Assembly: GCA_020725175.1 (NCBI GenBank) | Contig: DYFM01000009.1 | Coordinates: 1-55,048, forward strand | Source: Candidatus Paceibacter sp. | GTDB lineage: Bacteria > Patescibacteriota > Patescibacteriia > Magasanikbacterales > UBA922 | Length of the DNA stretch: 55,048 nt | Reading direction: 5' to 3' | Shown: piece by piece, positions 9,107-52,946 of the stretch | Layout of the letters: each line of letters begins with the position of its first letter | Position numbering within the stretch: position 1 is the stretch's first letter | Notes under the pieces: generated by a model | Seen by the model: only the letters and a program-made list of their open reading frames with translations | Databases searched by the model: none | What the model was told of the DNA's origin: nothing | Translations under genes and position numbers: made by a program

Positions 9107-10471
9107 TTATTGTTCTTCAGATCCAAAATCTTCATCTCTCTGGCGTCTTCCGGCTGCCATAGCCAATCCTAGAAGCGCTGCTCCAAAACCAAGTACGAGC
9201 CAAGTTCGGACGCGGCTGAATGTTGGTAGTAAACTCTTTTCCAAGGGGTTATTATCCTGTTTATCATTTCGATCATCACCATCAGTATCCATTTTCAATG
9301 GATCCGTGCCAAGTGTTCGTTCTTCTTTGTCCGTCAAACCATCCCCGTCAGTATCTTTACTTTGCGGATCTGTTCCCAGTGCCCGCTCTTCTTCGTCACT
9401 CAGTCCATCATTATCATCATCCGGATCCGCTTCATTTCCTGTTCCATCAAGGTCCGTATCTGCCCATTCTTTTGGATCAAGGGGAAATAAATCTAAAAAG
9501 TCATCAAATCCGTCGCCATCGGTATCTTTTTTTAATGGACTAATACCTTGAATAACTTCACTACCATCTTCCACCCCATCGTCATCAGTATCAGCTTTGG
9601 ATGGATCTGTTCCACGGGTCTGCTCTTCCGTATCGGTCAAACCATCATCATCAGAATCAGTTTTTCCGGGTTGCAACCCCAGTCGCACTTCTTCCGCATC
9701 TGATATTCCGTCTCCATCGGAATCAGCTTTTCTTGGATCACTGCCATATTGATATTCTTCGGCATCAGTAAGTCCGTCTCCATCAGTATCTGAATTCAAC
9801 GGATCACTCCCAAACACAACTTCATCACTATCCGGAAGCCCATCATTATCATCATCCGGATCACTTGCATCTCCTATTCCATCATTGTCCGCATCCGACC
9901 AATTGTGAGGATCTAGCGGAAACAAATCTCGATCATCAGCGTACCCATCGCCATCAGTATCTTTTTTTAATGGATCAGTTTTTTTCTGCTGCTCCTCAAT
10001 ATCACTCACACCATCACCATCATCATCTTCATCAGTACTATTTCCAATCCCATCTGCATCCGTATCTTGCTCAATGGATATTGTTCTTTCAGTAACATAC
10101 CCACCGGCATCTTTTGGAAGTACAGTAGGTTTCAAAGCATTATCGGCCGCACTCGGGTTTTTGATTTCAGCGCGAAACACCTGCTCACCCTCGGGCAACG
10201 TAAACTCAACCCATACTTGCCGAGCTTGTTCATAGCCCAAATTTTTTACTACTGCTTTTCCTATTTCTTTATCATGATTATAAAACACCACGTCAGCGGA
10301 AAAAAACGGCACCTCATTATTGACAACCACCGTATACACTTTCACCGTCTCTCCGGCAAACGCATGTGAATTTGATAACCAAATTCCATCAGATACCACA
10401 AAAGCATGTGCTTGTGCTGGAAGAAAAAGAATGGTAAAGATGGTACTAAGAAAAAGGAGTGATTTGCGCAT
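9107..10471 (-). CDS. Surface protein with many thrombospondin type 3-like (DxDxDG) repeats and a C-terminal TM anchor
   Basis: More than 12 DxDxDG(L/I)xD units, signal peptide from MRKSLLF (ATG 10471), C-terminal TM followed by RRQR. The ORF-track extension to 10540 comes from a DNA repeat. Confidence 0.85.
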   Translation of the reverse strand: MRKSLLFLSTIFTILFLPAQAHAFVVSDGIWLSNSHAFAGETVKVYTVVVNNEVPFFSADVVFYNHDKEIGKAVVKNLGYEQARQVWVEFTLPEGEQVFRAEIKNPSAADNALKPTVLPKDAGGYVTERTISIEQDTDADGIGNSTDEDDDGDGVSDIEEQQKKTDPLKKDTDGDGYADDRDLFPLDPHNWSDADNDGIGDASDPDDDNDGLPDSDEVVFGSDPLNSDTDGDGLTDAEEYQYGSDPRKADSDGDGISDAEEVRLGLQPGKTDSDDDGLTDTEEQTRGTDPSKADTDDDGVEDGSEVIQGISPLKKDTDGDGFDDFLDLFPLDPKEWADTDLDGTGNEADPDDDNDGLSDEEERALGTDPQSKDTDGDGLTDKEERTLGTDPLKMDTDGDDRNDKQDNNPLEKSLLPTFSRVRTWLVLGFGAALLGLAMAAGRRQRDEDFGSEEQ

Positions 10472-10488
10472 GATAAGATGAAAAGTTT

Positions 10489-10552
10489 GCAAGTTGGCAG
10501 GTTGGCAAGTTGGCAAGTTCGCAAGTTGGCAAGTTGACAAGTTGGCTAGTTA
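10489..10552. repeat. Octamer tandem array (GCAAGTTG)x8, degenerate
   Basis: Units GCAAGTTG GCAGGTTG GCAAGTTG GCAAGTTC GCAAGTTG GCAAGTTG ACAAGTTG GCTAGTTA. Confidence 0.92.
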
Positions 10553-10584
10553 TTGTTTCTAAGAATAAAATCTATAAACGGAAA

Positions 10585-10646
10585 GCAATATAACAATTCA
10601 GCAATATAACAACAAACCCTAATTTCCAATTCCTAATTTCCAATTT
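10585..10646. repeat. Short arrays: GCAATATAACAA x2 (16-nt period) and heptamer CTAATTT/CCAATTT x4
   Basis: Read directly at 10585-10612 and 10619-10646. Confidence 0.7.
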
Positions 10647-10672
10647 CATATACCAACTTACAAGTACCACCA

Positions 10673-10748
10673 TTTCTCTATTTCGTTATTTCGCTATTTC
10701 GTTATTTCGCTATTTCGTTGTTTCGTTATTTCGCTATTTCGTTATTTC
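10673..10748. repeat. Octamer tandem array (TTTCG[T/C]TA)x9
   Basis: TTTCTCTA followed by mostly alternating TTTCGTTA/TTTCGCTA units; same family as 88-123 and 10839-10866. Confidence 0.92.
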
Positions 10749-10835
10749 CCCGCCCAAGGCGGGTCCGCCTTGCTTGCCGGCCTAGGGTGGGGGCGGAGTT
10801 ATTTCGCAACTTGTCAGGCGCAGCGAAGCGGAGAC
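10749..10835. repeat. GC-rich REP-like dispersed element
   Basis: CCCGCC-CAA-GGCGGG hairpin. GTCCGCCTTGCTTG (10763-10776) is identical to 7063-7076, and both are followed by CCT(A/C)GGGTGG...GGGG. Confidence 0.65.
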
Positions 10836-10859
10836 TGATTTCCCTATTTCTCAATTTCT

Positions 10860-11780
10860 TTATTTCAAAGTTTCAACATCCAATTCTTCGCCATCTGTCT
10901 TCACTAGTATATCACCTTGTGTGTCTGTGCGCCACACCTCACTTCCGACCCGTTCGACACGGCGAATGACGCGCAATGACGGATGACCAAACTTATTCCC
11001 CAAACCGGCCGAAAATATCGTATGCAGTGGCGTTGTTTTTTCTATCATTTCAGGAATTGATGAACCGGCACTTCCATGATGTCCGGCTTTTAGCACTTCT
11101 ACATCTAGGATATCCGGATATGATTCGACCAAGTATTCCTCTAACTCTGCTTCCGAATCAGCGAGAAGTAATGTGTCAACATTTCCGTAAGTTAACTTTA
11201 GGATAATTGAACTATTATTGGAGCCGGTATCTTTTTCATGCCCCGGAACATTCGGATTCCGAGCAATTGAGTGGTCCGGATAAAGAAAATGTACAGTCGT
11301 ACTGGCAATTTCCCATGTTTCCGGTTGAGCTAATTCATAATACGCGTTTCCTTCCGCATGTGCCGCTTCCCAAAACGTTTGCCACATATCACTTTGATCT
11401 TTCATATACCCATTGTAGATAATGTTTCCAATCTCAAACCGCTTGATGACATCAACACAGCCACCATAATGATCAAGATCTGGATGCGTCACTACTAAAT
11501 AATCAAGTGTTCGATCATAATACGGCATCACCCGACCCAACGCTTCCAAAATCCGTGCATCAATCGCGCAGTCAACCAACATTTGTCGACCATCCGGAAA
11601 GACAATAAATGTTGCGTCCCCTTGTCCGATATCAAGAAACGTCATTTGTAGCGTTCCGGTAGTTGTTTCTAAAGAAGAATCAAGTGGTTGCGATTCATTT
11701 TGTTCTTTACTTTCGAGAATAAAAAGAAGTACGATTATCACGAATAAAAGGGAAAGAAGAATGAGAAACAGTTTTTTCAT
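10860..11780 (-). CDS. ComEC/Rec2-type metallo-beta-lactamase-fold nuclease domain as a stand-alone protein
   Basis: FLDIGQGDA, THPDLDHYGG, NNSSI, DVEVLKAGHHGS and FGHPS motifs; N-terminal TM anchor. Confidence 0.9.
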   Translation of the reverse strand: MKKLFLILLSLLFVIIVLLFILESKEQNESQPLDSSLETTTGTLQMTFLDIGQGDATFIVFPDGRQMLVDCAIDARILEALGRVMPYYDRTLDYLVVTHPDLDHYGGCVDVIKRFEIGNIIYNGYMKDQSDMWQTFWEAAHAEGNAYYELAQPETWEIASTTVHFLYPDHSIARNPNVPGHEKDTGSNNSSIILKLTYGNVDTLLLADSEAELEEYLVESYPDILDVEVLKAGHHGSAGSSIPEMIEKTTPLHTIFSAGLGNKFGHPSLRVIRRVERVGSEVWRTDTQGDILVKTDGEELDVETLK

Positions 11781-11792
11781 AGCTTAAAAGTA

Positions 11793-11874
11793 ATAGGAAC
11801 ACGGATTGAACGGATATAACGAATACTAACGGATCCGTTTTAATCTGTTTCATCCGTCAAATCCGTGTTTCTAT
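11793..11874. repeat. 82-bp imperfect palindrome of AACGGAT-type ~9-nt units centred on GGATCC
   Basis: The 41-bp arms match at 31 of 41 positions; the sequence closely resembles the GxxExxY-flanking inverted repeats. Confidence 0.9.
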
Positions 11875-11878
11875 CAAA

Positions 11879-13456
11879 TCAATACTCGACCCCCTTATCT
11901 TCGACCGCATCACTTACACTCACTCCTGTCATATATATCGGCACTGGAACACCTTTTTTCTTCACCCCTTTCTGATACTGCCAAATCCAGTATCCAAGCA
12001 GTCCATATAATCCCATCATTCCCCACACCGGCACCGTCAAATCAATCGCCGCAAAGGACAAATCTGAAAACCATCGCACCACTGTCACAATATACGCCAT
12101 TCCCGCCCAAGCCACCCACGCAATAAGCTGACCGAGTGGTTGAAGTATGGCCGAGATTATCACGGCAAAAAACCCAATTCCCATGATAAATGGCAAAGCC
12201 CAAAGAATAAGCACATTGACCATGGGCGCAACAGTGGACAGACGACCAAACTGAAACAAAATTAACGGTAACGTAGAGAGTATCGCGGCAAAGGTCGAAA
12301 TCAAGGTTTCACGCATTCCCAATACCTCCGGTACACGGACAAACCACCGCCGAATCAGCGGCGCAACATAAACTAATCCAAGGGTAGATAAAAATGATAG
12401 CTGAAATCCGGCGTCATATATCAACACAAATGGATTGTGAAGTGTCATCAAAACCGCTGTCAAAACAAGTACATTACCAACCCGAGATAAGCGACCAATT
12501 TGTCGAGTCAACAACACAATGATACCCATGATTCCGGCCCGCACCACCGATGCGCTTGCTCCGGCAAATATTACAAACAGTACTATTCCGGTCACAACAA
12601 CCCAAAACGCTTTTCTTCTTGGGATATACAAATTTACGCAAATACCAATAAAAATAGTCGCAATCAAGGTAATATTATATCCGGATATCGCCACAATATG
12701 CGTTACCCCGGTTCGACTAAATTGTTCATTCAGGCTTCCAAGTCCACCTCGGTACCCATACAAAAGTCCGGCCATAAAGCTCGCATACGGTTCATGCCAC
12801 AAAAGATTGATCTTCAAAGCAAACCAGTCTTTTAATCCCAAAATTCCTCGCATAAACACCGATCCTTCTCCTTCCCCCACTTTTACCATGCTCATTGGCT
12901 CACAAATACTAAACACTCCAAACCGTGCCAAATATTTATCATATTGAAAATCCTCAATCGGCCCCGGCTGTTTCAAATTACAATTCATTTCCAAAACATC
13001 CCCATATGCATACCGCGGATACAAACCTCCTTTAATGTATACGCTGCCGTTCAAATCAAAGTCGTCATTTTTTATGTTTTGTTTGTTTTGAATGTTTTTA
13101 ATATTTACAATATACCTCACCCCATCCATTCGCACATCCGGCTCTGCTCGAACATAGCCCACTAGAGACACTTTCTGTCCGTTATAATAAGAAACGTGTC
13201 GAGAAGAATCTGTCGGGTAAGCCAGGACATATCGAACAAGCCCGAGAAAAAAACAAAACAGTAAGACAACGATAAAACGACTCTTTGGTTCTTTCCAAAA
13301 AATTATAAACAATGTAATGAACAAGAAAAGTGAAAAATAAAGATGGTGATAAGAAATCTGGATATCAACTATAGAAATTGTTCCGACGCCAAGTAAAAAA
13401 GAAAAACAAAACGCGAGAAACGTTTTGCTTTTAAATTGTATGATCCCCCTGAGCAT
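11879..13456 (-). CDS. comEC: ComEC/Rec2 competence DNA-uptake membrane protein (OB plus Competence domain)
   Basis: GVTHIVAISGYNI, ASVVRAGIMG, DAGFQLSFLSTLG motifs; many TM helices. Confidence 0.93.
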   Translation of the reverse strand: MLRGIIQFKSKTFLAFCFSFLLGVGTISIVDIQISYHHLYFSLFLFITLFIIFWKEPKSRFIVVLLFCFFLGLVRYVLAYPTDSSRHVSYYNGQKVSLVGYVRAEPDVRMDGVRYIVNIKNIQNKQNIKNDDFDLNGSVYIKGGLYPRYAYGDVLEMNCNLKQPGPIEDFQYDKYLARFGVFSICEPMSMVKVGEGEGSVFMRGILGLKDWFALKINLLWHEPYASFMAGLLYGYRGGLGSLNEQFSRTGVTHIVAISGYNITLIATIFIGICVNLYIPRRKAFWVVVTGIVLFVIFAGASASVVRAGIMGIIVLLTRQIGRLSRVGNVLVLTAVLMTLHNPFVLIYDAGFQLSFLSTLGLVYVAPLIRRWFVRVPEVLGMRETLISTFAAILSTLPLILFQFGRLSTVAPMVNVLILWALPFIMGIGFFAVIISAILQPLGQLIAWVAWAGMAYIVTVVRWFSDLSFAAIDLTVPVWGMMGLYGLLGYWIWQYQKGVKKKGVPVPIYMTGVSVSDAVEDKGVEY

Positions 13457-13460
13457 ACAG

Positions 13461-13953
13461 AATAGACCGCGAATTAAACGGATGTAACGAATAAAAACGG
13501 ATCTTTTGAAAGTGACTTTTTCAGCTTATTTTCATACACCCTTCTCCGAAACTCTGGTTTTAATCCAAAATTAAACAAAAGACCAACTTCCATGGAAGTG
13601 GCCTTTAAATAGTTTAAGAGCTGTGCTTCATGTTCTAAGCACAAAGATTCAGCAGCTTTAAGTTCAATTATTATCCTCTCCTCAACGACAATATCAGCAA
13701 AATACTCACCAACTTTTATTCCCAAGTCAAACACTTGAATTGGCACCTGCCTTCTACCATGAATATTCATTCTCTGCAATTCATATATCAAAGAGTTTTC
13801 ATACACTTTCTCCAAAAAACCATACCCAAGTCTATTGTATACATTGTAATACGCACGTATAATTTTACCACTAAGCTCCTCCTCTAGCATAGAAATAAAG
13901 TTATAAAACTAATTCGTTATTATTCGTTACATCCGTTTAATTCGCGGTCTATT
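13461..13953. mobile_element. Putative GxxExxY cassette bounded by perfect 34-bp inverted repeats
   Basis: 13461-13494 AATAGACCGCGAATTAAACGGATGTAACGAATAA is the exact reverse complement of 13920-13953. The repeat is certain; mobility is inferred. Confidence 0.7.
13474..13890 (-). CDS. GxxExxY protein (PD-(D/E)xK nuclease-like fold)
   Basis: 138 aa. GFLEKVY is the GxxExxY motif; ADIVVEERIIIELKA gives D...ELK; QLLNYLK..G.L.NFG. Confidence 0.93.
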   Translation of the reverse strand: MLEEELSGKIIRAYYNVYNRLGYGFLEKVYENSLIYELQRMNIHGRRQVPIQVFDLGIKVGEYFADIVVEERIIIELKAAESLCLEHEAQLLNYLKATSMEVGLLFNFGLKPEFRRRVYENKLKKSLSKDPFLFVTSV

Positions 13954-13968
13954 ATACCATCAAATCCT

Positions 13969-16900
13969 TCAAATCACAATCGACACCAACTTTCCTTTCA
14001 CATAAATCACCTTCTTCGGTTCCTTCCCTTCCAACCACTTCGCTACATTTTCCTGCTTGAGTGCCAACTGTTTCACTTCTTCTTCATCAACATCAACGGC
14101 AACATCAATCGTCCCTCGCAATTTTCCATTTACCTGAATGGCAATTGTTACATTGTCAATTGTAAGGTACTGTTCATCACACATCGGCCAACCGGAACGA
14201 GCGATAGATTGCCCATACCCAAGCTGCTGCCACAGTTCCTCTGCAATATGTGGCGCAAATGGTGCCAAAAGCTGAATCAGTGATGCGTATGCTGATTTAG
14301 AAATAGTCTCCGCTTTCATCCACTCATTGGTCAATTCCATCATTTTAGCAATTGCCGTGTTAAACCGCATTTCATCAATATCTTCACTAACTTTTTTTAT
14401 GGTTTGATGTAATGTCTGTAAAACCTTCTTTTCGTTTTCAGCACCTTCTTTTACTTTTCCTTGCAAATTCCATACCCGATCCAAAAACCGTCGTACCCCA
14501 ATCAACCCGTTGATATCCCATTCCACTGCCTGATCAAATGGACCCATAAACATAATATATGTCCGCAAAGTATCAGCACCAAATTGCTCTACCATTTCAT
14601 CCGGATTCACCACATTTCCTTTACTCTTACTCATCTTTTCTCCACCTTTTGCAAGAATCATGCCATGACTGGTTCGTTTGTTGTATGGTTCCTTAAACGG
14701 CACCACACCGATGTCGTACAAAAATTGATTCCAAAAACGGGAGTACAATAAATGTAAAACAACGTGCTCCATACCACCATTGTACCAATCTACCGGTCCC
14801 CAATATTTCATTGCTTCAGGAGATGCCAAGGCCTCAGAATTATTCGGATCCATGTAGCGTAAAAAGTACCAACTTGATCCGGCCCAGTTTGGCATAGTGT
14901 CAGTTTCTCGCCGCGCTTCTCCGCCACATTTCGGACAAGTCGTCTTTACCCAGTCTTCCATCGCAGCCAGCGGTGATTCCCCTGTATCTGTTGGTTGATA
15001 TTTTTCTACTTGCGGCAAGGTTAATGGCAATTGATCTTCTGGAAGCGGAATCCAGCCTGTTGGTTCAACATTTTTTTGAACAATAGGTTCATTTGTTGAA
15101 CAAAAATGACTTACCTCAGGCTCAGCAATAATAATATTTGCCCCCAACTTCGTATGAAAAATTTTCTCTTGACCTTGGGGGACAACCGGATGGTCTTTAT
15201 CGACTATTACGACCCACTCTTTTGCCAATGAACGAATATCATCAAAACTAAATTTCCAATCACAGCTTTTTTCAACCGGCTCACGGCGTTTATCGTTAAA
15301 AGTAGGCTCTGTAAAACAGTCTACCAACACTACTTTTTCTACTGACTCCTGAAGATTTACTTGTTCTAAAAGTTTCATGACTACTGCCCCACCTAAACTA
15401 TGAGCAACAACAATAGTGTTTTTGTCTAACACACACTTCTGTTTCAAATATGCAACCTGTTCTTCAATATTTGGTGCGTCTGAATTTGGAAGAGATGGGT
15501 AAGAAACCTCATGCCCTTTATCTTCCAGACTCTTCTTAAGTTCAATAAAAAAATCTTCTCGTGCAGTCGGATTGAAACCATGAACAAATACGTATTTATA
15601 CTTTTTATTTTCACACTGATCGCACTTAACCAACGGAATCGGCTCCCCCCAATATCTTTGTCGAGAAAATACCCAATCTCGGAGCTTGAACTGTACTTTT
15701 CGTTTTCCCACACCTTTTTCTTCAAGCCACTGAATCATGGTTTCCTTTGCTTGGGGTGTTTTTAGATCATTTAGAAATTCTGAATTGATGGTAATACCTT
15801 CGTCAGAAAAACAATCATTCTTCATGGATAATTGTCGCCAAACATATTTGAAATTCGGTAAATTTAAAAACTCAACCATACTATCTTTTTCTATCCAAAC
15901 AGCTGTATGATTTTTTATTTCTTCCTCATTGGGTTTTTCATACTCACCATCTATCAACTCAAAATATAATCCATGACCAATTGCATATCGATTTTCATCT
16001 TTATGACGTGCAAAAAAAACATTATGGTTTTCTCCACCGACAGATCGCACAAATTTAATATTCTTATATCCTGTTTCTTCACGAATTTCACGCATTGCCG
16101 CTTCCACAATATCCTCACCCTTCTCTACTCCACCAATAATACCAGTGTGCCAACCAAATTTCTCCCAATCAAGACATAAATATGTATCATCTTGCCAATG
16201 TTTTACTATCGCATTAATAGTGTGCCTTTTTAACACCGGTTTATCAGGTCGATACGCATCATCAACTGTATCATTAGCATGAAAAAAGGCCACCACTTGT
16301 TTAATTGGAATATTATATTTTTTAGCAAACTCATAATCCCTCTCATCATGCGCCGGCACCGCCATAATCGCTCCGGTTCCATACGTAGCCAGCACATAAT
16401 CAGCCACAAAAATTGGAATTTCTTCCTCTGTCGCCGGATTGATCGCTTTCAAGCCTTTCAATTCAACCCCGGTCTTTTCTTTCTGCAATTCCGTCCGCTC
16501 CAAATCAGACTTTAACCTTGCCTTCTCAACATAGGTATGTACTTCGTCAACATTTTTAATTGTTCCTTGTTCCTTGTTCCTTGTTCCTTCGAGGAGCTGT
16601 GCGACGAGTTCATGTTCCGGCGCCACAACCATGTACGTCACCCCAAACAAGGTATCTGGACGAGTCGTAAAAACTTCAAGCTCACCAATTTCGCCTTTAT
16701 TTGAACTTAAAACTTTAAACTTTATACTTGCTCCCGAAGAGCGCCCTATCCAATTTTCCTGCTGTGTCCGTGCCATAGGGATATAATCCACTTCATTCAA
16801 TCCATCAAGTAAACTATCGGCGTATTTGGTAATGGCGAGCATCCACTGTTCTTTATCGCGTTTTTCTACCGGACCACCACAGCGTTCACACGTTCCATCG

Positions 16901-17415
16901 ACCACTTCTTCATTAGCGAGACCAATCTTACAGTTCAAGCACCAATTAATCGGCATGTTTTTCTTGTAGGCTAACCCATGTTTGTAGAGTTGCAAAAAAA
17001 TCCACTGCGTCCATTTGTAGTACGCCGGATCAGTCGTATCCACCATGCGTGACCAGTCAAACCCAAAACCGAGCGACTTGAGTTGGCGGGTAAAATTGGC
17101 AATATTTTCAGCCGTCACCTCAGCCGGAGGTCGTCCGGTTTTAATCGCGTAATTTTCTGTCGGAAGTCCAAACGCGTCAAACCCGATCGGATAGAGAACA
17201 TTTTTTCCTTCCATTCTTTTTTTACGAGAAATCACATCCATGGCAGTAAATGGCCGCGGATGCCCAACATGAAGTCCTGCTCCCGATGGATACGGAAACT
17301 CAATCAGCGCGTAAAATTTTTCTTTACTTTCATCAAGATCAGCACGATACGTTTGCTGTTCATCCCAATGCTTTTGCCATTTTGGCTCTATTTCTTTTGG
17401 GTTATAAGGTTGCAT
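13969..17415 (-). CDS. leuS: Leucyl-tRNA synthetase, enlarged (1148 aa) by inserted Nudix and alpha/beta-hydrolase domains
   Basis: HVGH (HIGH), KMSKS, FTTRPDTLFG, GTGAIMAVPAHDERD, LRDWVFSRQRYWGEPIP and C-terminal IQVNGKLRG motifs. Confidence 0.97.
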   Translation of the reverse strand: MQPYNPKEIEPKWQKHWDEQQTYRADLDESKEKFYALIEFPYPSGAGLHVGHPRPFTAMDVISRKKRMEGKNVLYPIGFDAFGLPTENYAIKTGRPPAEVTAENIANFTRQLKSLGFGFDWSRMVDTTDPAYYKWTQWIFLQLYKHGLAYKKNMPINWCLNCKIGLANEEVVDGTCERCGGPVEKRDKEQWMLAITKYADSLLDGLNEVDYIPMARTQQENWIGRSSGASIKFKVLSSNKGEIGELEVFTTRPDTLFGVTYMVVAPEHELVAQLLEGTRNKEQGTIKNVDEVHTYVEKARLKSDLERTELQKEKTGVELKGLKAINPATEEEIPIFVADYVLATYGTGAIMAVPAHDERDYEFAKKYNIPIKQVVAFFHANDTVDDAYRPDKPVLKRHTINAIVKHWQDDTYLCLDWEKFGWHTGIIGGVEKGEDIVEAAMREIREETGYKNIKFVRSVGGENHNVFFARHKDENRYAIGHGLYFELIDGEYEKPNEEEIKNHTAVWIEKDSMVEFLNLPNFKYVWRQLSMKNDCFSDEGITINSEFLNDLKTPQAKETMIQWLEEKGVGKRKVQFKLRDWVFSRQRYWGEPIPLVKCDQCENKKYKYVFVHGFNPTAREDFFIELKKSLEDKGHEVSYPSLPNSDAPNIEEQVAYLKQKCVLDKNTIVVAHSLGGAVVMKLLEQVNLQESVEKVVLVDCFTEPTFNDKRREPVEKSCDWKFSFDDIRSLAKEWVVIVDKDHPVVPQGQEKIFHTKLGANIIIAEPEVSHFCSTNEPIVQKNVEPTGWIPLPEDQLPLTLPQVEKYQPTDTGESPLAAMEDWVKTTCPKCGGEARRETDTMPNWAGSSWYFLRYMDPNNSEALASPEAMKYWGPVDWYNGGMEHVVLHLLYSRFWNQFLYDIGVVPFKEPYNKRTSHGMILAKGGEKMSKSKGNVVNPDEMVEQFGADTLRTYIMFMGPFDQAVEWDINGLIGVRRFLDRVWNLQGKVKEGAENEKKVLQTLHQTIKKVSEDIDEMRFNTAIAKMMELTNEWMKAETISKSAYASLIQLLAPFAPHIAEELWQQLGYGQSIARSGWPMCDEQYLTIDNVTIAIQVNGKLRGTIDVAVDVDEEEVKQLALKQENVAKWLEGKEPKKVIYVKGKLVSIVI
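16560..16587. repeat. Perfect heptamer repeat (TTGTTCC)x4 inside leuS
   Basis: Encodes GTRNKEQGT in frame. Confidence 0.95.
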
Positions 17416-23340: not shown

Positions 23341-23481
23341 CGGAAGAAGTTCCAAGGGTAAATTTCCAAGTTCCAAATAACGTCTTATATGTGTTTTTTT
23401 TTTATTTTTTCGTTAGCTGAACTACACTTACGTATACACGTGGTTTTGTATTATACTACTGATATAGACCATTTTTACTAT

Positions 23482-23799
23482 ATGAACATAATGAAAAAAA
23501 CCACAATCCAACAGCTATATCAAGAGATTGCCACTACGATTTTTCAACATGTAGATCCACGAACACATCGTGTGTTTATATTTGGTTCCCGGGCCAGAGG
23601 AGATAACTCAGAACGATCTGATATTGATATTGGAATTGAAGGTCCCACAAAAATCCCAGGATACACCATGACAAATATACGAGAAGCACTTGACCTACTT
23701 CCAACACTTCTTTCCTTTGATGTCATAGATTTCTATTCCGCCTCAGATAAATTTAAAAAAGAAGCCTACACCACAATCAAACCACTTTCTCATTATTAA
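23482..23799 (+). CDS. Minimal nucleotidyltransferase (MNT) antitoxin-like protein
   Basis: FGSRARGDNSERSDIDI fits GSx10DxD, plus FDVID. The start is probably 23482 or 23491, not 23389. Confidence 0.88.
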   Translation: MNIMKKTTIQQLYQEIATTIFQHVDPRTHRVFIFGSRARGDNSERSDIDIGIEGPTKIPGYTMTNIREALDLLPTLLSFDVIDFYSASDKFKKEAYTTIKPLSHY

Positions 23800-24243: not shown

Positions 24244-24261
24244 ACCTCACAAGGAGTGATA

Positions 24262-24282
24262 TTTCTAATTTCTAATTTCTAA
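24262..24282. repeat. Heptamer (TTTCTAA)x3
   Basis: Read directly; abuts the stop codon of the epimerase. Confidence 0.8.
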
Positions 24283-24284
24283 TA

Positions 24285-25240: not shown

Positions 25241-25327
25241 GATTAGGCAGATTACGCTTATATACAAAACAAATTTTGATTGGGTTAGTATGTATAGTAA
25301 AACTTAATCTGCTTAATCTGCCTATTC
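25241..25327. repeat. Inverted pair of GCAGATT-type nonamer arms in the intergenic region
   Basis: 25241-25257 GATTAGGCAGATTACGC matches the reverse complement of 25311-25327 (GAATAGGCAGATTAAGC) at 15 of 17 positions. Confidence 0.7.
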
Positions 25328-25335
25328 TACTTACC

Positions 25336-26124
25336 CTATTCCTCCACTTGCCATTGTTCAATGTATTGTTGAAACTTCTGTATTCGAAGAGCATCTCGTT
25401 CGTGGAATAAAAATGGCTGAACATCACGGACCATTTCATTGAAGTCAACTTCTTGGCAACGCTTTAACAGGGCAACCTTGAGATCCACAAGAGACGTAAT
25501 CTGAAACTTATGTGCCAAATATCCAACATGAGGCTTGGTAATTCCATCGAGAAAGATAAAATCATAGAAGTCACGTCCTTTAGCAGTTTTTCTACCCAGA
25601 ATTGCGCCGGCTTTTTGGGCCATGAGAATATCCTTTGGATTTACTGCAATTTCTTCCACAATGCCATAGCGATTGAAAAACTTTTTTTCCGGCTCGATCG
25701 GAAAATCTTGTACAACAGTGTCTATCTTCACTAATATTTTTTCGTCAGCGTAAGGTGATAATTTATGCTGATACAGTAAGTTCCCAAACCGCACATAACA
25801 ATGAAAGGCTCCTTTGATTTTAATTACTGCATCCACCTGAAATCCTTGTAACAATAAATCACGCACTACCAACTCAATAGTCGCTTCAAATTCATCAACA
25901 GCCAAACCAAAATTATCAAAATCAAGGTCTTCAGAAAACCGAGAGATGTTATAAAAAAAACGCAAACTGGTTCCACCGATAAAGCTTATTTTTCCACTTG
26001 GCACATGCTGAAATAATGACTGCAACATAATGCACTGTAGATACTCCGCCAAGGCTTGCTTTTCTCTACCAGCTGGAAAATTATGTTCTTTTGACAAGGC
26101 CACTATTTGTTCTAATGTCAACAT
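25336..26124 (-). CDS. AbiEii-family nucleotidyltransferase (type IV TA toxin-like)
   Basis: FIGGTSLRFFYNISRFSEDLDF motif; K...ILGRKTAKGRDFYD. Confidence 0.9.
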   Translation of the reverse strand: MLTLEQIVALSKEHNFPAGREKQALAEYLQCIMLQSLFQHVPSGKISFIGGTSLRFFYNISRFSEDLDFDNFGLAVDEFEATIELVVRDLLLQGFQVDAVIKIKGAFHCYVRFGNLLYQHKLSPYADEKILVKIDTVVQDFPIEPEKKFFNRYGIVEEIAVNPKDILMAQKAGAILGRKTAKGRDFYDFIFLDGITKPHVGYLAHKFQITSLVDLKVALLKRCQEVDFNEMVRDVQPFLFHERDALRIQKFQQYIEQWQVEE

Positions 26125-28220: not shown

Positions 28221-28274
28221 AATATCTATATCAATATCCATCTTAATCTTAATCTTAATCTTAATCTTTACCTT
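28221..28274. repeat. Hexamer array (AATCTT)x4 perfect with degenerate flanking units
   Basis: Read directly; lies between two dehydrogenase genes. Confidence 0.85.
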
Positions 28275-29652
28275 AGTGTTTCAATAAAGGACTCCCCACC
28301 GCAATAACAGCACATCCAGCAGCCACCAAATCATCATACCGATGTTGCAGCATGCGTCTTCCATCCATAACCAATGGTCGGGACTTCTCTCCCAAAATCA
28401 TATCGGCCACACCCCGAAACTGTGGCCAGTCAGTTGCCACAACTACACAATCAGCAGTGACAATGGCTTCCATTTCATGCCCCACATACTGAATAGTTTC
28501 ATTTGCCGGAAAAAGAGCCTCAAACATCTCTCGCGCTGATGGATCGTAAATACGGATTGCTTCAACTTGCTTTTCTTGCAAAAATCGAACAATATCAATA
28601 CTCGGTGAATTTCGAATATCATTGGTATCCCGCTTGAACGCAGTTCCTAGCAGGGCAATAGTTTTTCCTTTCCAGTCAAATTTCGCTTCTTTTTCCGCAC
28701 GAGATAAAAACAGTTCCAGTTGTCGCTTGTTCGCCAAGTAGGTTTCATTGACCAGTACCGCCTCCTGCCCCTTGGTTTGAAGTTGGTGAGAAAGAGAGCG
28801 CGCGTCTTTGATAAAACAACTCCCGCCGGCATAGAGGCTGTTGTAAAATCCCCAACTCCCGATTCGGTTATCACTCGTTAAAATACGACGAATATGCTCA
28901 AATCTCACCTCCGGAAATGTTTCGCAGGTACGGCCAATTACATCGTAACACACCGCCAGTTTATTGAACAAATAATAATTGGCAAGGAGTTTTCCGGCTG
29001 CGGCTTCTTTGGGATTGACTTCGATGTATTCCACATTCGGGGAATCATAAAACCGTTGATAAATGCGACGCATAACCAAAAAATCGTCTTCATTCCAAGC
29101 TCCTACTACGATACGATCCGGTTTCAGAGAACCCTGAATCGCTTTTCCTTCAACCAAAAATTCCGGATTGGAAACCACTCCTACATTTTGTACAGCATGT
29201 TTTTTAAGTATTGTCTCAGTAAGATCTACCGTATCGATCGGCACAGTGCTTTTATTGATGATAACCAACCGCTTTGACTGAGTGCCTGAGTTTCGCTTGG
29301 TCAAGGCTTCTGACAATTGCTCAAGCGCGGTAGTATAGTAGGTCAAATTACTTTCCCCGGTTTCACCGATTTCTGGGGTTGGGAGACACAAAAATACCGC
29401 ATCACAGGTATCTAAACACTCTTCCACTTTTCGGTAATCTGTGGTAAAGTCAATGCGATCTTGATGGCGAATGAGGAGATCAGCCAGACCGTCTTCGTAG
29501 AGGCAGGATTCTATTTGCTCTCTATTTTTTGAAGACAGTTTCTGTATTTTAACTTGATCAATATCGAATACGAGAGCCTGATGACCACTGTCGGCTGATA
29601 CGGCAGCAGAACAGGAGCCGACGAAGCCGGCGCCTATGTAGAGAAGGTGCAT
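28273..29652 (-). CDS. UDP-glucose/GDP-mannose family 6-dehydrogenase
   Basis: IGAGFVG, CLPTP, NKSTVP, SNPEFLVEG, GGSCFIKD and AFKRDTNDIRNSP motifs. Confidence 0.92.
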   Translation of the reverse strand: MHLLYIGAGFVGSCSAAVSADSGHQALVFDIDQVKIQKLSSKNREQIESCLYEDGLADLLIRHQDRIDFTTDYRKVEECLDTCDAVFLCLPTPEIGETGESNLTYYTTALEQLSEALTKRNSGTQSKRLVIINKSTVPIDTVDLTETILKKHAVQNVGVVSNPEFLVEGKAIQGSLKPDRIVVGAWNEDDFLVMRRIYQRFYDSPNVEYIEVNPKEAAAGKLLANYYLFNKLAVCYDVIGRTCETFPEVRFEHIRRILTSDNRIGSWGFYNSLYAGGSCFIKDARSLSHQLQTKGQEAVLVNETYLANKRQLELFLSRAEKEAKFDWKGKTIALLGTAFKRDTNDIRNSPSIDIVRFLQEKQVEAIRIYDPSAREMFEALFPANETIQYVGHEMEAIVTADCVVVATDWPQFRGVADMILGEKSRPLVMDGRRMLQHRYDDLVAAGCAVIAVGSPLLKH

Positions 29653-47903: not shown

Positions 47904-47930
47904 ATCTATATAAAAAAGCTATTTCAATAG

Positions 47931-47960
47931 TATCAAAAAGTGTCAATAGGTGTCAATAGA
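47931..47960. promoter_or_regulatory. Three 10-bp direct repeats upstream of HTH copy 1 (putative operator)
   Basis: TATCAAAAAG TGTCAATAGG TGTCAATAGA; a homologous triplet lies at 52870-52899. Confidence 0.6.
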
Positions 47961-52780: not shown

Positions 52781-52850
52781 AAAGTCCAAAAGTCCAAAAG
52801 TCCGTTGAAGTCGCAACTTTGGACATTAAAGACTCTGTGGACTTTTGACT
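52781..52850. repeat. Octamer (AAAGTCCA)x3 with inverted remnants (TTTGGAC, TGGACTTTTGACT) around a GTTG..CAAC core
   Basis: Read directly. Confidence 0.75.
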
Positions 52851-52869
52851 ATTTGAGTATACCAGAAAG

Positions 52870-52899
52870 TGTCATTAGATGTCAAAAGGTGTCAAAAGG
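52870..52899. promoter_or_regulatory. Three 10-bp direct repeats upstream of HTH copy 2 (putative operator)
   Basis: TGTCATTAGA TGTCAAAAGG TGTCAAAAGG. Confidence 0.6.
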
Positions 52900-52911
52900 T
52901 TATTCACACCT

Positions 52912-52946
52912 AAAGTCAAAAGTTTAAAGTTAAAAGTCCAAAAAGC
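52912..52946. repeat. Heptamer array AAAGTCA/AAAGTTT/AAAGTTA/AAAGTCC
   Basis: Read directly. Confidence 0.7.

Follow-up and report, generated by a model that had tools for sequence, protein, structure and literature searches.

A comEC–MBL intergenic palindrome as a gene-less member of a dispersed hairpin-repeat family with a nuclease-bearing full form

The 82-nt palindrome lying between comEC and the MBL-fold gene in the window (by which we mean the whole 55,048-nt stretch of DNA analysed here) can best be regarded as an element of hairpin and nuclease in its form without the gene, and as a variant of the REP or MITE kind of repeat. The family to which it belongs is dispersed, multi-copy and hairpin-forming, with a nuclease gene at the dyad of its full form, and it occupies operon gaps only, in a lineage-specific manner. 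The best explanation, to which we assign a probability of about 0.55, is that the palindrome is a non-autonomous, REPIN- or MITE-like member of this family with the nuclease as its trans-acting partner. The window matches a contig of a JGI subsurface metagenome, homologues of the proteins that it encodes are named Candidatus Magasanikbacteria or Patescibacteria, and the coordinates of the features are collected in Table 1.

Table 1. Features of the window around comEC and gene-less family members at other loci (L numbers)
Feature	Locus	Coordinates	Strand	Remark
Gene-less palindrome	window	11793–11874	-	empty member of the ATAGAAC...GTTCTAT family, in the co-directional comEC–MBL gap
5' arm (transcription direction)	window	11834–11874	-	ATAGAAACACGGATTTGACGGATGAAACAGATTAAAACGGA, i.e. 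terminal ATAGAAC motif plus 9-nt units
3' arm (transcription direction)	window	11793–11833	-	reverse complement of ATAGGAACACGGATTGAACGGATATAACGAATACTAACGGA
Dyad centre GGATCC	window	11831–11836	.	axis is the unit's own GATC; 0 nt between arms
MBL-fold gene (Lactamase_B, Pfam)	window	10860–11780	-	split-off C-terminal ComEC domain, directly downstream of palindrome
comEC channel part (DUF4131 + Competence, Pfam)	window	11879–13456	-	between full and empty element
Cassette 3' arm (transcription direction)	window	13461–13502	-	encodes last 10 codons and stop of the nuclease ORF
GxxExxY / PDDEXK_3 nuclease gene	window	13474–13890	-	138 aa; single copy in genome
Cassette 5' arm (transcription direction)	window	13912–13953	-	begins 15–16 nt past leuS stop
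leuS	window	13969–17415	-	1148 aa; 3' end is the conserved cassette site in Magasanikbacteria
Gene-less palindrome, 101 nt	L005	3227–3327		KSB1 MAG JAFGJB010000321
Gene-less member	L016	3840–3926		TAA stop overlaps TAATAG
Gene-less member, 80 nt	L026	176–255		element's own ATAG supplies the stop TAG
Gene-less member	L029	1235–1308
Gene-less members, two	L032	3996–4085 and 5545–5624		first copy, TGA TGA TAG leads into element; second copy, TAA stop overlaps TAATAG
Gene-less member, 80 nt	L033	9434–9513
Gene-less short form, 42 nt	L036	562–603		TAA stop overlaps TAATAG

The palindrome, its copies and its family

Read directly, the palindrome consists of ATAGGAACACGGATTGAACGGATATAACGAATACTAACGGA joined without interruption to TCCGTTTTAATCTGTTTCATCCGTCAAATCCGTGTTTCTAT, and the repeat finder returns the same object, with two 41-nt arms, zero loop and 31 of 41 positions paired (76%). 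Both agree with the earlier note, which had described an 82-bp palindrome closed at GGATCC with no gene between its arms, and the open reading frame coordinates bear out the distances that it gave, 4 nt from the comEC stop (11879–11881) and 12 nt to the MBL start. A dyad falling on the unit's own GATC without spacer is common to the window palindrome and to those of L026, L029, L032 and L033. The unit-for-unit match claimed with the cassette arm is also recovered, at 82% identity over 39 nt (11797–11835 against 13465–13503), the alignment containing an indel of 1 nt close to the terminus. The window palindrome carries a 1-nt insertion mirrored in both arms, and arm-to-arm identities were taken from a gapped alignment, which is suited to it. 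Within the window, the 9-nt unit pattern is matched five times against 0.8 expected, and a profile search with the arms finds exactly four matches, namely the arms of the palindrome and of the cassette (E 2e-5 to 3e-4). Folding gives -36.5 kcal/mol for the sense-strand RNA (z = -5.9) and -35.6 kcal/mol for the antisense strand (z = -7.7), with none of 200 shuffles as good in either case. Rfam has no match on the palindrome or its arms, at the gathering threshold or at E ≤ 1, and no rRNA, tRNA or tmRNA genes were found in the window.

An intrinsic (Rho-independent) terminator has a short stem rich in G+C and, immediately behind it, a U-tract. This candidate was rejected for the palindrome, which is not called by the terminator scan, has no U-tract and is followed on its 3' side by UACUUUUAAGCU. 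Canonical GC-stem/T-run terminators are found as separate structures beside family members, at L005 3145–3179 and in L008 after 4416; the KSB1 palindrome of L005 lies ~50 nt after such a terminator. That two low-complexity tandem tracts should resemble each other by accident, one of them with an ordinary terminator hairpin, is hardly credible. The genome is indeed rich in short tandem repeats, which inflates the similarity of such tracts, but the shuffle tests speak against chance, more than ten independent elements share the specific termini and length, and the U-tract is lacking where canonical terminators stand apart.

In runs X1, X2 and X4, the palindrome matches other contigs of depth 78, 23 and 7, against 69, 21 and 9 for the window contig, and these depth-matched contigs share 37–86 nt across the dyad at 80–95% identity with differing flanks. 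Summed over contigs, depth is 790–1010 in the region of the cassette arms but 70 in the gene body. The element terminus 13461 is the exact starting point of nine contigs whose upstream sequences are unrelated, and one genome-depth contig fuses both cassette arms directly, while the nuclease gene body stands at single-copy depth. From arm depth, contig starts and gene-body depth, the genome contains a single full element next to nine or more without the gene, a count that reflects the depth of contigs from the source samples and not a closed genome. The centres of the further copies read ...ACGGATCCGT..., as in the window copy, and the breaking of the locus by the assembler at the arms is what is expected of a repeat. 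The search for full and empty copies thus turned out in favour of the earlier note: the family is multi-copy in the genome, so the palindrome is not the isolated, ordinary conserved terminator that the note had held against its own reading, and comEC is bracketed, as it had proposed, by one full and one empty member whose arms fall in one repeat family.

Among relatives, we surveyed eighty loci around MBL homologues as well as the loci around GxxExxY homologues, and a pattern scan was run on species-representative genomes, a set in which the source genome is not included. The scan gave two matches, of which one is the KSB1 palindrome and the other (Culturomica) was discarded as a chance match in coding sequence. 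Family members are present in other Magasanikbacteria, a KSB1 MAG, Ignavibacteria and Bacteroidota. They end in ATAGAACAY(R)GAT...ATC(Y)RTGTTCTAT, are typically ~80 nt long and have no loop spacer, since a GATC or AATT of the unit itself forms the dyad. Each arm comprises about four 9-nt units of the form xAACRRATx with invariant AAC and AT cores (positions 16–18, 21–22, 25–27, 30–31 and 35–37), and the terminus is ATAG(A/G)AAC or ATAGACC in 22 of 22 aligned arms. The internal dinucleotide depends on the lineage (ACGGAT, ACGAAT or ACAGAT, with CCAGGAT in L033). One arm of the KSB1 palindrome shows 88% identity with the cassette arm of the window, a value matching the closest Magasanikbacteria copies. 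In L033, the cassette arm is 85–90% identical to its own empty copy 9 kb away and at most 80% identical to any other genome, and the two share lineage-specific units. For the window palindrome, arm identity is ~78% in the comparison with the cassette next to it and 80–83% in that with the L026 palindrome. Being nearer to L026 than to the cassette of its own genome, the palindrome relates to that cassette as a fellow family member and not as offspring to parent. The proposal of the earlier note that it is a non-autonomous, MITE- or REP-like derivative is therefore supported as regards membership of one family, whereas direct descent from this cassette is not supported.

Further intergenic palindromes of 65–95 nt were seen in CPR relatives (L016 6409–6487, 13549–13624, 17697–17782 and 20221–20287; L032 6236–6300; L029 781–874; L053 4636–4706; L067 7303–7387; L074 3009–3103). 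Their arms are tandem 7–9-mers of unrelated units, e.g. AAGCAGATT (common to L016 and L032), CACGTAA, CACGAAG and TTCGGAT, which suggests a whole set of such hairpin families. In the window itself, the 320-nt gap after the MBL gene (10470–10870) holds non-palindromic tandem octamer arrays around a GC-rich core, on the minus strand (GAAATAAC/GAAATAGC)x9, (CCAACTTG)x8.6 and (GGAAATTA)n. This gap folds no better than shuffles (z = 0.5), and its tracts reach ~94x depth versus 3–5x for the flanks in related metagenomes, so that they are multi-copy as well. Short tandem arrays of 6–10-nt units are found in many of the larger gaps between genes, with a different unit each (86–123, 1460–1503, 24261–24283, 25303–25333, 28240–28275, 47924–47959 and 52781–52937), and such arrays may represent solo arms of tandem-unit hairpins or the material from which these arise. 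The open reading frame for a TSP3-repeat protein (9107–10540) begins with a TTG that prolongs its 5' end across the (CCAACTTG)n array, and the true start lies probably further downstream. The window also carries a PIF1-like helicase gene at its start (109–1455), and a Polbeta-type nucleotidyltransferase (23389–23799, plus strand) and an AbiEii-type toxin (25336–26124, minus strand) with an epimerase/dehydratase gene between them.

The GxxExxY cassette and turnover at gene junctions

The genes leuS, GxxExxY, comEC and MBL all lie on the minus strand. The cassette spans 13461–13953, and its 42-nt arms are 95% complementary according to the repeat finder. Its product scores 131.5 bits against PF13366 (cut-off 22) and 125.8 bits against TIGR04256 (cut-off 35), and the catalytic residues D66, E76 and K78 are invariant among 20 homologues. 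The solved folds nearest to its structure model (pLDDT 89, pTM 0.81) are Cas4 SSO0001 and the lambda/alkaline exonucleases, with Hjc lower in the list. PHROGs, PADLOC and PDB sequence searches with the nuclease returned nothing useful, and a transposase domain was not found in the cassette. In L016, the open reading frame occupies the dyad exactly (...ACGAAT/ATG...TAG/ATTCGT...), and the running of the window frame into its arm accounts for the odd C-terminal tails of many GxxExxY family members. Identity between GxxExxY proteins is high across phyla (59–65%), and the Magasanikbacteria with a cassette after leuS share just 65–88%; this recurrence at one site looks like vertical inheritance and is to be weighed against the explanation that we favour. 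Strain variants aside, the closest relative of the MBL protein is only 64% identical.

Several side observations concern the same genes. A promoter-like site is present on the minus strand at 13951–13979 (TTGTGA-17-TG-TATAAT, extended -10, 10 of 12 matches), and its -10 box, made of the leuS 3' flank and the terminal AT(AG) of the cassette, recalls the promoters at Correia ends. The promoter scan at family ends gave no consistent -10/-35, with a good match only at the outer end of the cassette. The leuS product owes its length to NUDIX and serine-hydrolase/alpha-beta-hydrolase domains that follow the editing domain as insertions, and the same long architecture occurs in several Magasanikbacteria (L008, L009, L016). 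ComEC is likewise encoded as a channel gene plus a separate MBL gene in the window (10860–13456), L016 (10422–13545), L032, L033 and L036; the split comEC of a JGI contig is caused by a run of N, which rules out a frameshift there.

Every family member that we read occupies the stop-to-start gap of co-directional genes, 0–17 nt after the upstream stop (16 nt for the window cassette, 1 nt in L033), with 1–15 nt left to the start that follows. Directly after leuS, the nuclease gene is present in the window, L007, L008, L016–18 and L033, with arms always of the ATAGAAC...GTTCTAT family. The leuS–comEC junction holds the cassette in the window, L007, L008, L016 and L033, and L032 has an empty palindrome there with no nuclease gene. 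At the next junction, comEC abuts MBL without palindrome in L019–22, L024, L025 and L034, and a methyltransferase gene is found between them in L016, L023, L026, L032, L033 and L036. This methyltransferase, of 200–212 aa in several relatives, is absent from the window. The methyltransferase–MBL junction holds a palindrome of the window family in L026, one of AAGCAGATT units in L032 and a GC-rich one in L033 and L036; in L032, palindromes flank the methyltransferase gene on both sides, and L016 has comEC, methyltransferase and MBL without any palindrome. None of the relatives examined has a GxxExxY gene between comEC and MBL. Junctions that match across relatives thus display gain, loss and replacement of elements. 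Since they are empty or filled with other palindromes, the window palindrome is not conserved at its orthologous site. The comparison of this spacer proposed in the earlier note was therefore informative, giving abutment, a methyltransferase or differing palindromes with lineage-specific occupancy, and the sorting into full and empty forms succeeded in part: both forms occur in different relatives at leuS–comEC, but not at comEC–MBL.

These junctions also bear on a local origin of the palindrome, in which a full cassette, or a gene lying between two palindromes such as the methyltransferase, would have been lost and the arms fused as a scar. The empty palindrome of L032 lies exactly at the cassette site of five relatives, six relatives have the methyltransferase between comEC and MBL, with palindromes on both its sides in L032, and arms that are only 76% complementary are what a chimera of two elements would look like. 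However, empties at unrelated sites are equally imperfect (75–80% complementary), at least nine empties stand against one full copy in the genome, and the precise zero-spacer GATC dyad is that of every other empty and not of a ragged deletion. Moreover, comEC abuts MBL in so many relatives that the absence of the methyltransferase need not be recent. Together with the lack of any relative with GxxExxY at this junction, these points make a local remnant rather improbable, and the excision scar entertained in the earlier note finds no direct support in the relatives, which have abutment or a methyltransferase there. No insertion polymorphism was seen in contigs of strains 93–97% related, X6–X9 retaining the palindrome at the comEC–MBL site, and counting against our own explanation, neither a transposition event nor an excision product was seen in the contigs examined. 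Several copies have TA on both flanks, which can equally be read as an extension of the palindrome (TAATAG...CTATTA); the window palindrome is flanked by TG/TA, and no target-site duplication is readable in the flanks of the copies.

Proposed mechanism and its rivals

The full form of the element has a promoterless GxxExxY/PDDEXK_3 open reading frame placed exactly at the dyad. According to the explanation that we favour, the gene-less copies would be non-autonomous selfish repeats comparable to REPINs or MITEs. They would spread or persist as DNA, in the shape of an extruded hairpin or cruciform, and the single-copy Cas4/RecB-like nuclease would be their partner acting in trans. The dependence of the gene-less copies on the nuclease is suggested by analogy with REPIN-RAYT, and we infer it from the ratio of one gene to many repeats, from the vertical inheritance of a gene flanked by the arms and from the co-variation of arm and empty copy in L033. 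We know of no PD-(D/E)XK nuclease of GxxExxY size acting as a transposase. Between comEC and MBL, the palindrome would merely be carried along in the host transcript, where its imperfect ~41-bp stem may serve as an RNase III or stability site. Since elements such as IVS and Correia repeats also ride in host transcripts as long stems, processing by RNase III would be a reasonable consequence.

Within one element, the two arms co-vary. Own-arm matches number 325 versus 291 ± 9 when arms are swapped between elements, a score reached in 2 of 2000 permutations, and the co-variation also holds at positions 15–38 (15 of 2000). The variable positions between unit cores pair poorly (4–5 of 11), sense-strand G.U exceeds A.C by 34 to 25 over all elements, which is not significant, and by 21 to 12 in the empties, and the commonest class of mismatch between arms is transversions. 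Poor pairing, transversions and the 34:25 ratio leave no clear signature of selection for a sense-strand RNA helix, and the conserved feature may be something other than stem stability, for instance a repeated protein-binding motif. Three elements (L026, L036 and L099) have a sense-strand U.G at position 9 in common. The metatranscriptomes of the same study contain no reads from the source organism.

These figures have to be weighed for a host RNA element, in which the host would reuse the motif as an intercistronic stem-loop, as an RNase III site, a barrier to 3'-exonucleases or a stop-proximal device tuning the two ComEC halves. Such a function would fit the stability of the sense-strand fold, far beyond shuffles, the constant placement just past a stop and just before a start in co-directional pairs, the co-varying arms, the excess of G.U in the empties and the shared U.G at position 9, and it has precedents in the stems of 23S rRNA IVS, which RNase III cleaves (PMC4990558), and in the Correia elements, which this enzyme binds or cleaves (PMC2649163). 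We nevertheless consider it unlikely. The overall G.U excess is not significant where transversions prevail, conservation resides in the 9-nt-period unit sequence and not in pairing at variable positions, the antisense strand folds as well, many relatives have the same junction without a hairpin or with an unrelated one, and an RNA hairpin does not need a zero-spacer dyad.

The conservation of the unit sequence is also what would be expected if the 9-nt xAACRRATx units were bound by a protein as double-stranded DNA, in the manner of iterons or of nucleoid or partition-type sites, with the hairpin as a by-product. The AAC and AT cores, which do not vary and recur every 9 nt while the bases between them are free, the termini conserved across phyla and the non-palindromic arrays of 7–9-mers in other intergenic gaps of the genome all agree with such an array. 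Still, a 9-bp period does not hold sites on one face of B-DNA, the co-variation of arms within an element exceeds what shared cores account for (the permutations restricted to positions 15–38), an open reading frame lying exactly at the dyad is left unexplained, and no candidate binding protein was identified. We thus regard a protein-binding array as very unlikely.

Wider occurrence and comparison with known systems

The pairing of GxxExxY with tandem-unit hairpins is seen in several phyla. The gene lies between inverted repeats of tandem 8–9-mers in Ignavibacteria, Tenuifilaceae, Sphingomonas, Bacteroides finegoldii (after radA) and Treponema, and it is co-directional with both neighbours in all cases whose neighbours were examined. 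The inverted repeats of Ignavibacteria (L099) and Tenuifilaceae (L104) are 43–45 nt long with the terminus ATAGAACAC of the window family; other tandem 8–9-mers flank the gene in the IMG/VR contig L114, Sphingomonas, Bacteroides finegoldii and Treponema. A copy on a plasmid of Fusobacteria has no clear inverted repeats. Viral contigs scanned with the nuclease alignment gave a single distant locus, so the element is not typically viral.

Two of these loci deserve a description of their own. In Sphingomonas parapaucimobilis (L116, NZ_CP155749.1 482837–483265), the gene interrupts the operon for fatty-acid synthesis, where it has fabD on one side and fabG on the other, and is flanked by 25-nt inverted repeats of CGCGAAGG units that are 92% complementary. 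In L099, inverted repeats of 31 nt, made of AAATGTGAAACGTGA-type units, enclose a 23S_rRNA_IVP/four-helix-bundle gene (516–872; whole element 437–933), one gene (aconitase) upstream of the GxxExxY cassette, and both elements are co-directional and inserted between metabolic genes. The 23S_rRNA_IVP genes may form a parallel element class.

PDDEXK_3 was listed as of unknown function in a superfamily survey of 2012 (PMC3424549), and a literature search (GxxExxY, PDDEXK_3/PF13366, IVS protein) found no account of the hairpin-plus-nuclease arrangement or of its genomic setting. We tentatively propose, and would not put it at even odds, that GxxExxY genes with tandem-unit hairpin arms could constitute an undescribed class of bacterial elements and an analogue of REPIN-RAYT, in which a nuclease encoded at the hairpin tip would maintain or spread gene-less hairpins in the stop-to-start gaps of essential operons of CPR, Ignavibacteria, Bacteroidota, KSB1, Spirochaetes and Alphaproteobacteria. 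The GxxExxY family is very large, with at least 8000 candidates in the homologue search, and the arrangement offers a testable hypothesis for it, namely that the hairpin arms are the substrate. In CPR genomes, it would account for many short intergenic palindromes, assembly breaks and odd peptide tails derived from repeat arms, and open reading frames running into arms should be trimmed or flagged in annotation.

Free-standing homing endonuclease genes, of the seg/mob type of phage T4, are inserted between conserved genes. The cassette is like them a small, promoterless, co-directional nuclease gene between essential genes with a patchy presence among relatives and a high protein identity across phyla. 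To our knowledge, homing endonuclease genes of this kind lack hairpin arms at their sides and do not leave copies without the gene scattered in the genome. An integron attC site is an intact imperfect palindrome 3' of an open reading frame, with core sites RYYYAAC...GTTRRRY, in an array near intI. Such a gene cassette was rejected as a model, the open reading frame splitting the palindrome at the dyad (L016), ATAGAAC/GTTCTAT matching only the AAC/GTT triplets and the copies being dispersed singly between housekeeping genes.

With the 23S rRNA IVS (the Coxiella IVS with S23p, PMC4990558; CPR rRNA insertions, bioRxiv 10.1101/2024.02.27.582315), the element shares a promoterless small open reading frame between complementary stem-forming ends, the existence of versions with and without this frame, and transport in a host transcript, and the 23S_rRNA_IVP gene of L099 is itself set in a tandem-unit inverted repeat beside a GxxExxY cassette. 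It differs by its place between protein genes instead of in an rRNA helix and by the family of its open reading frame. Like the Correia elements of Neisseria (PMC2649163), the family is short, non-coding, bounded by inverted repeats, intergenic, co-transcribed, present or absent between relatives and possibly endowed with a promoter at the element end (13979–13951). Unlike them, the whole element is one palindrome and not a core between terminal inverted repeats, there is no sequence similarity, the full partner encodes a nuclease and not an IS transposase, and no target duplication is demonstrable. As in a MITE, terminal inverted repeats are common to a longer protein-coding element (82% over 39 nt, or ~78% gapped); with no readable target duplication and no transposase, the palindrome is not filed as a classical MITE.

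Close parallels exist with REPIN-RAYT, in which REP doublets form hairpins and the REP-associated tyrosine transposase is single-copy (Bertels & Rainey 2011, PMC3116915; PMC3337134). In both systems, extragenic palindromes of ~80–100 nt are able to form hairpins in single-stranded DNA or mRNA, many gene-less copies stand against one protein gene flanked by inverted repeat arms, the partner gene is vertically inherited at a fixed site, and, inside a genome, the repeats follow the partner gene in their sequence, as in L033. The differences lie in the number of gene-less copies, tens and up to hundreds in REPIN-RAYT versus ~10 in the window family, in the flanked gene, which is a PD-(D/E)XK (Cas4/RecB-like) nuclease and not a Y1 HUH transposase, in the terminus, ATAG(A)AC and not GTAG or CGTC (PMC3733652), in the arms, made of tandem 9-mers and not of one REP stem, and in the hosts, which for the window-type family are CPR, Ignavibacteria, Bacteroidota and KSB1. 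With another partner and another terminal tag, the palindrome cannot be filed as a REP or REPIN itself. If the proposed partnership is true, long-lived intragenomic replicators of the REPIN-RAYT type would comprise a second class of enzyme.
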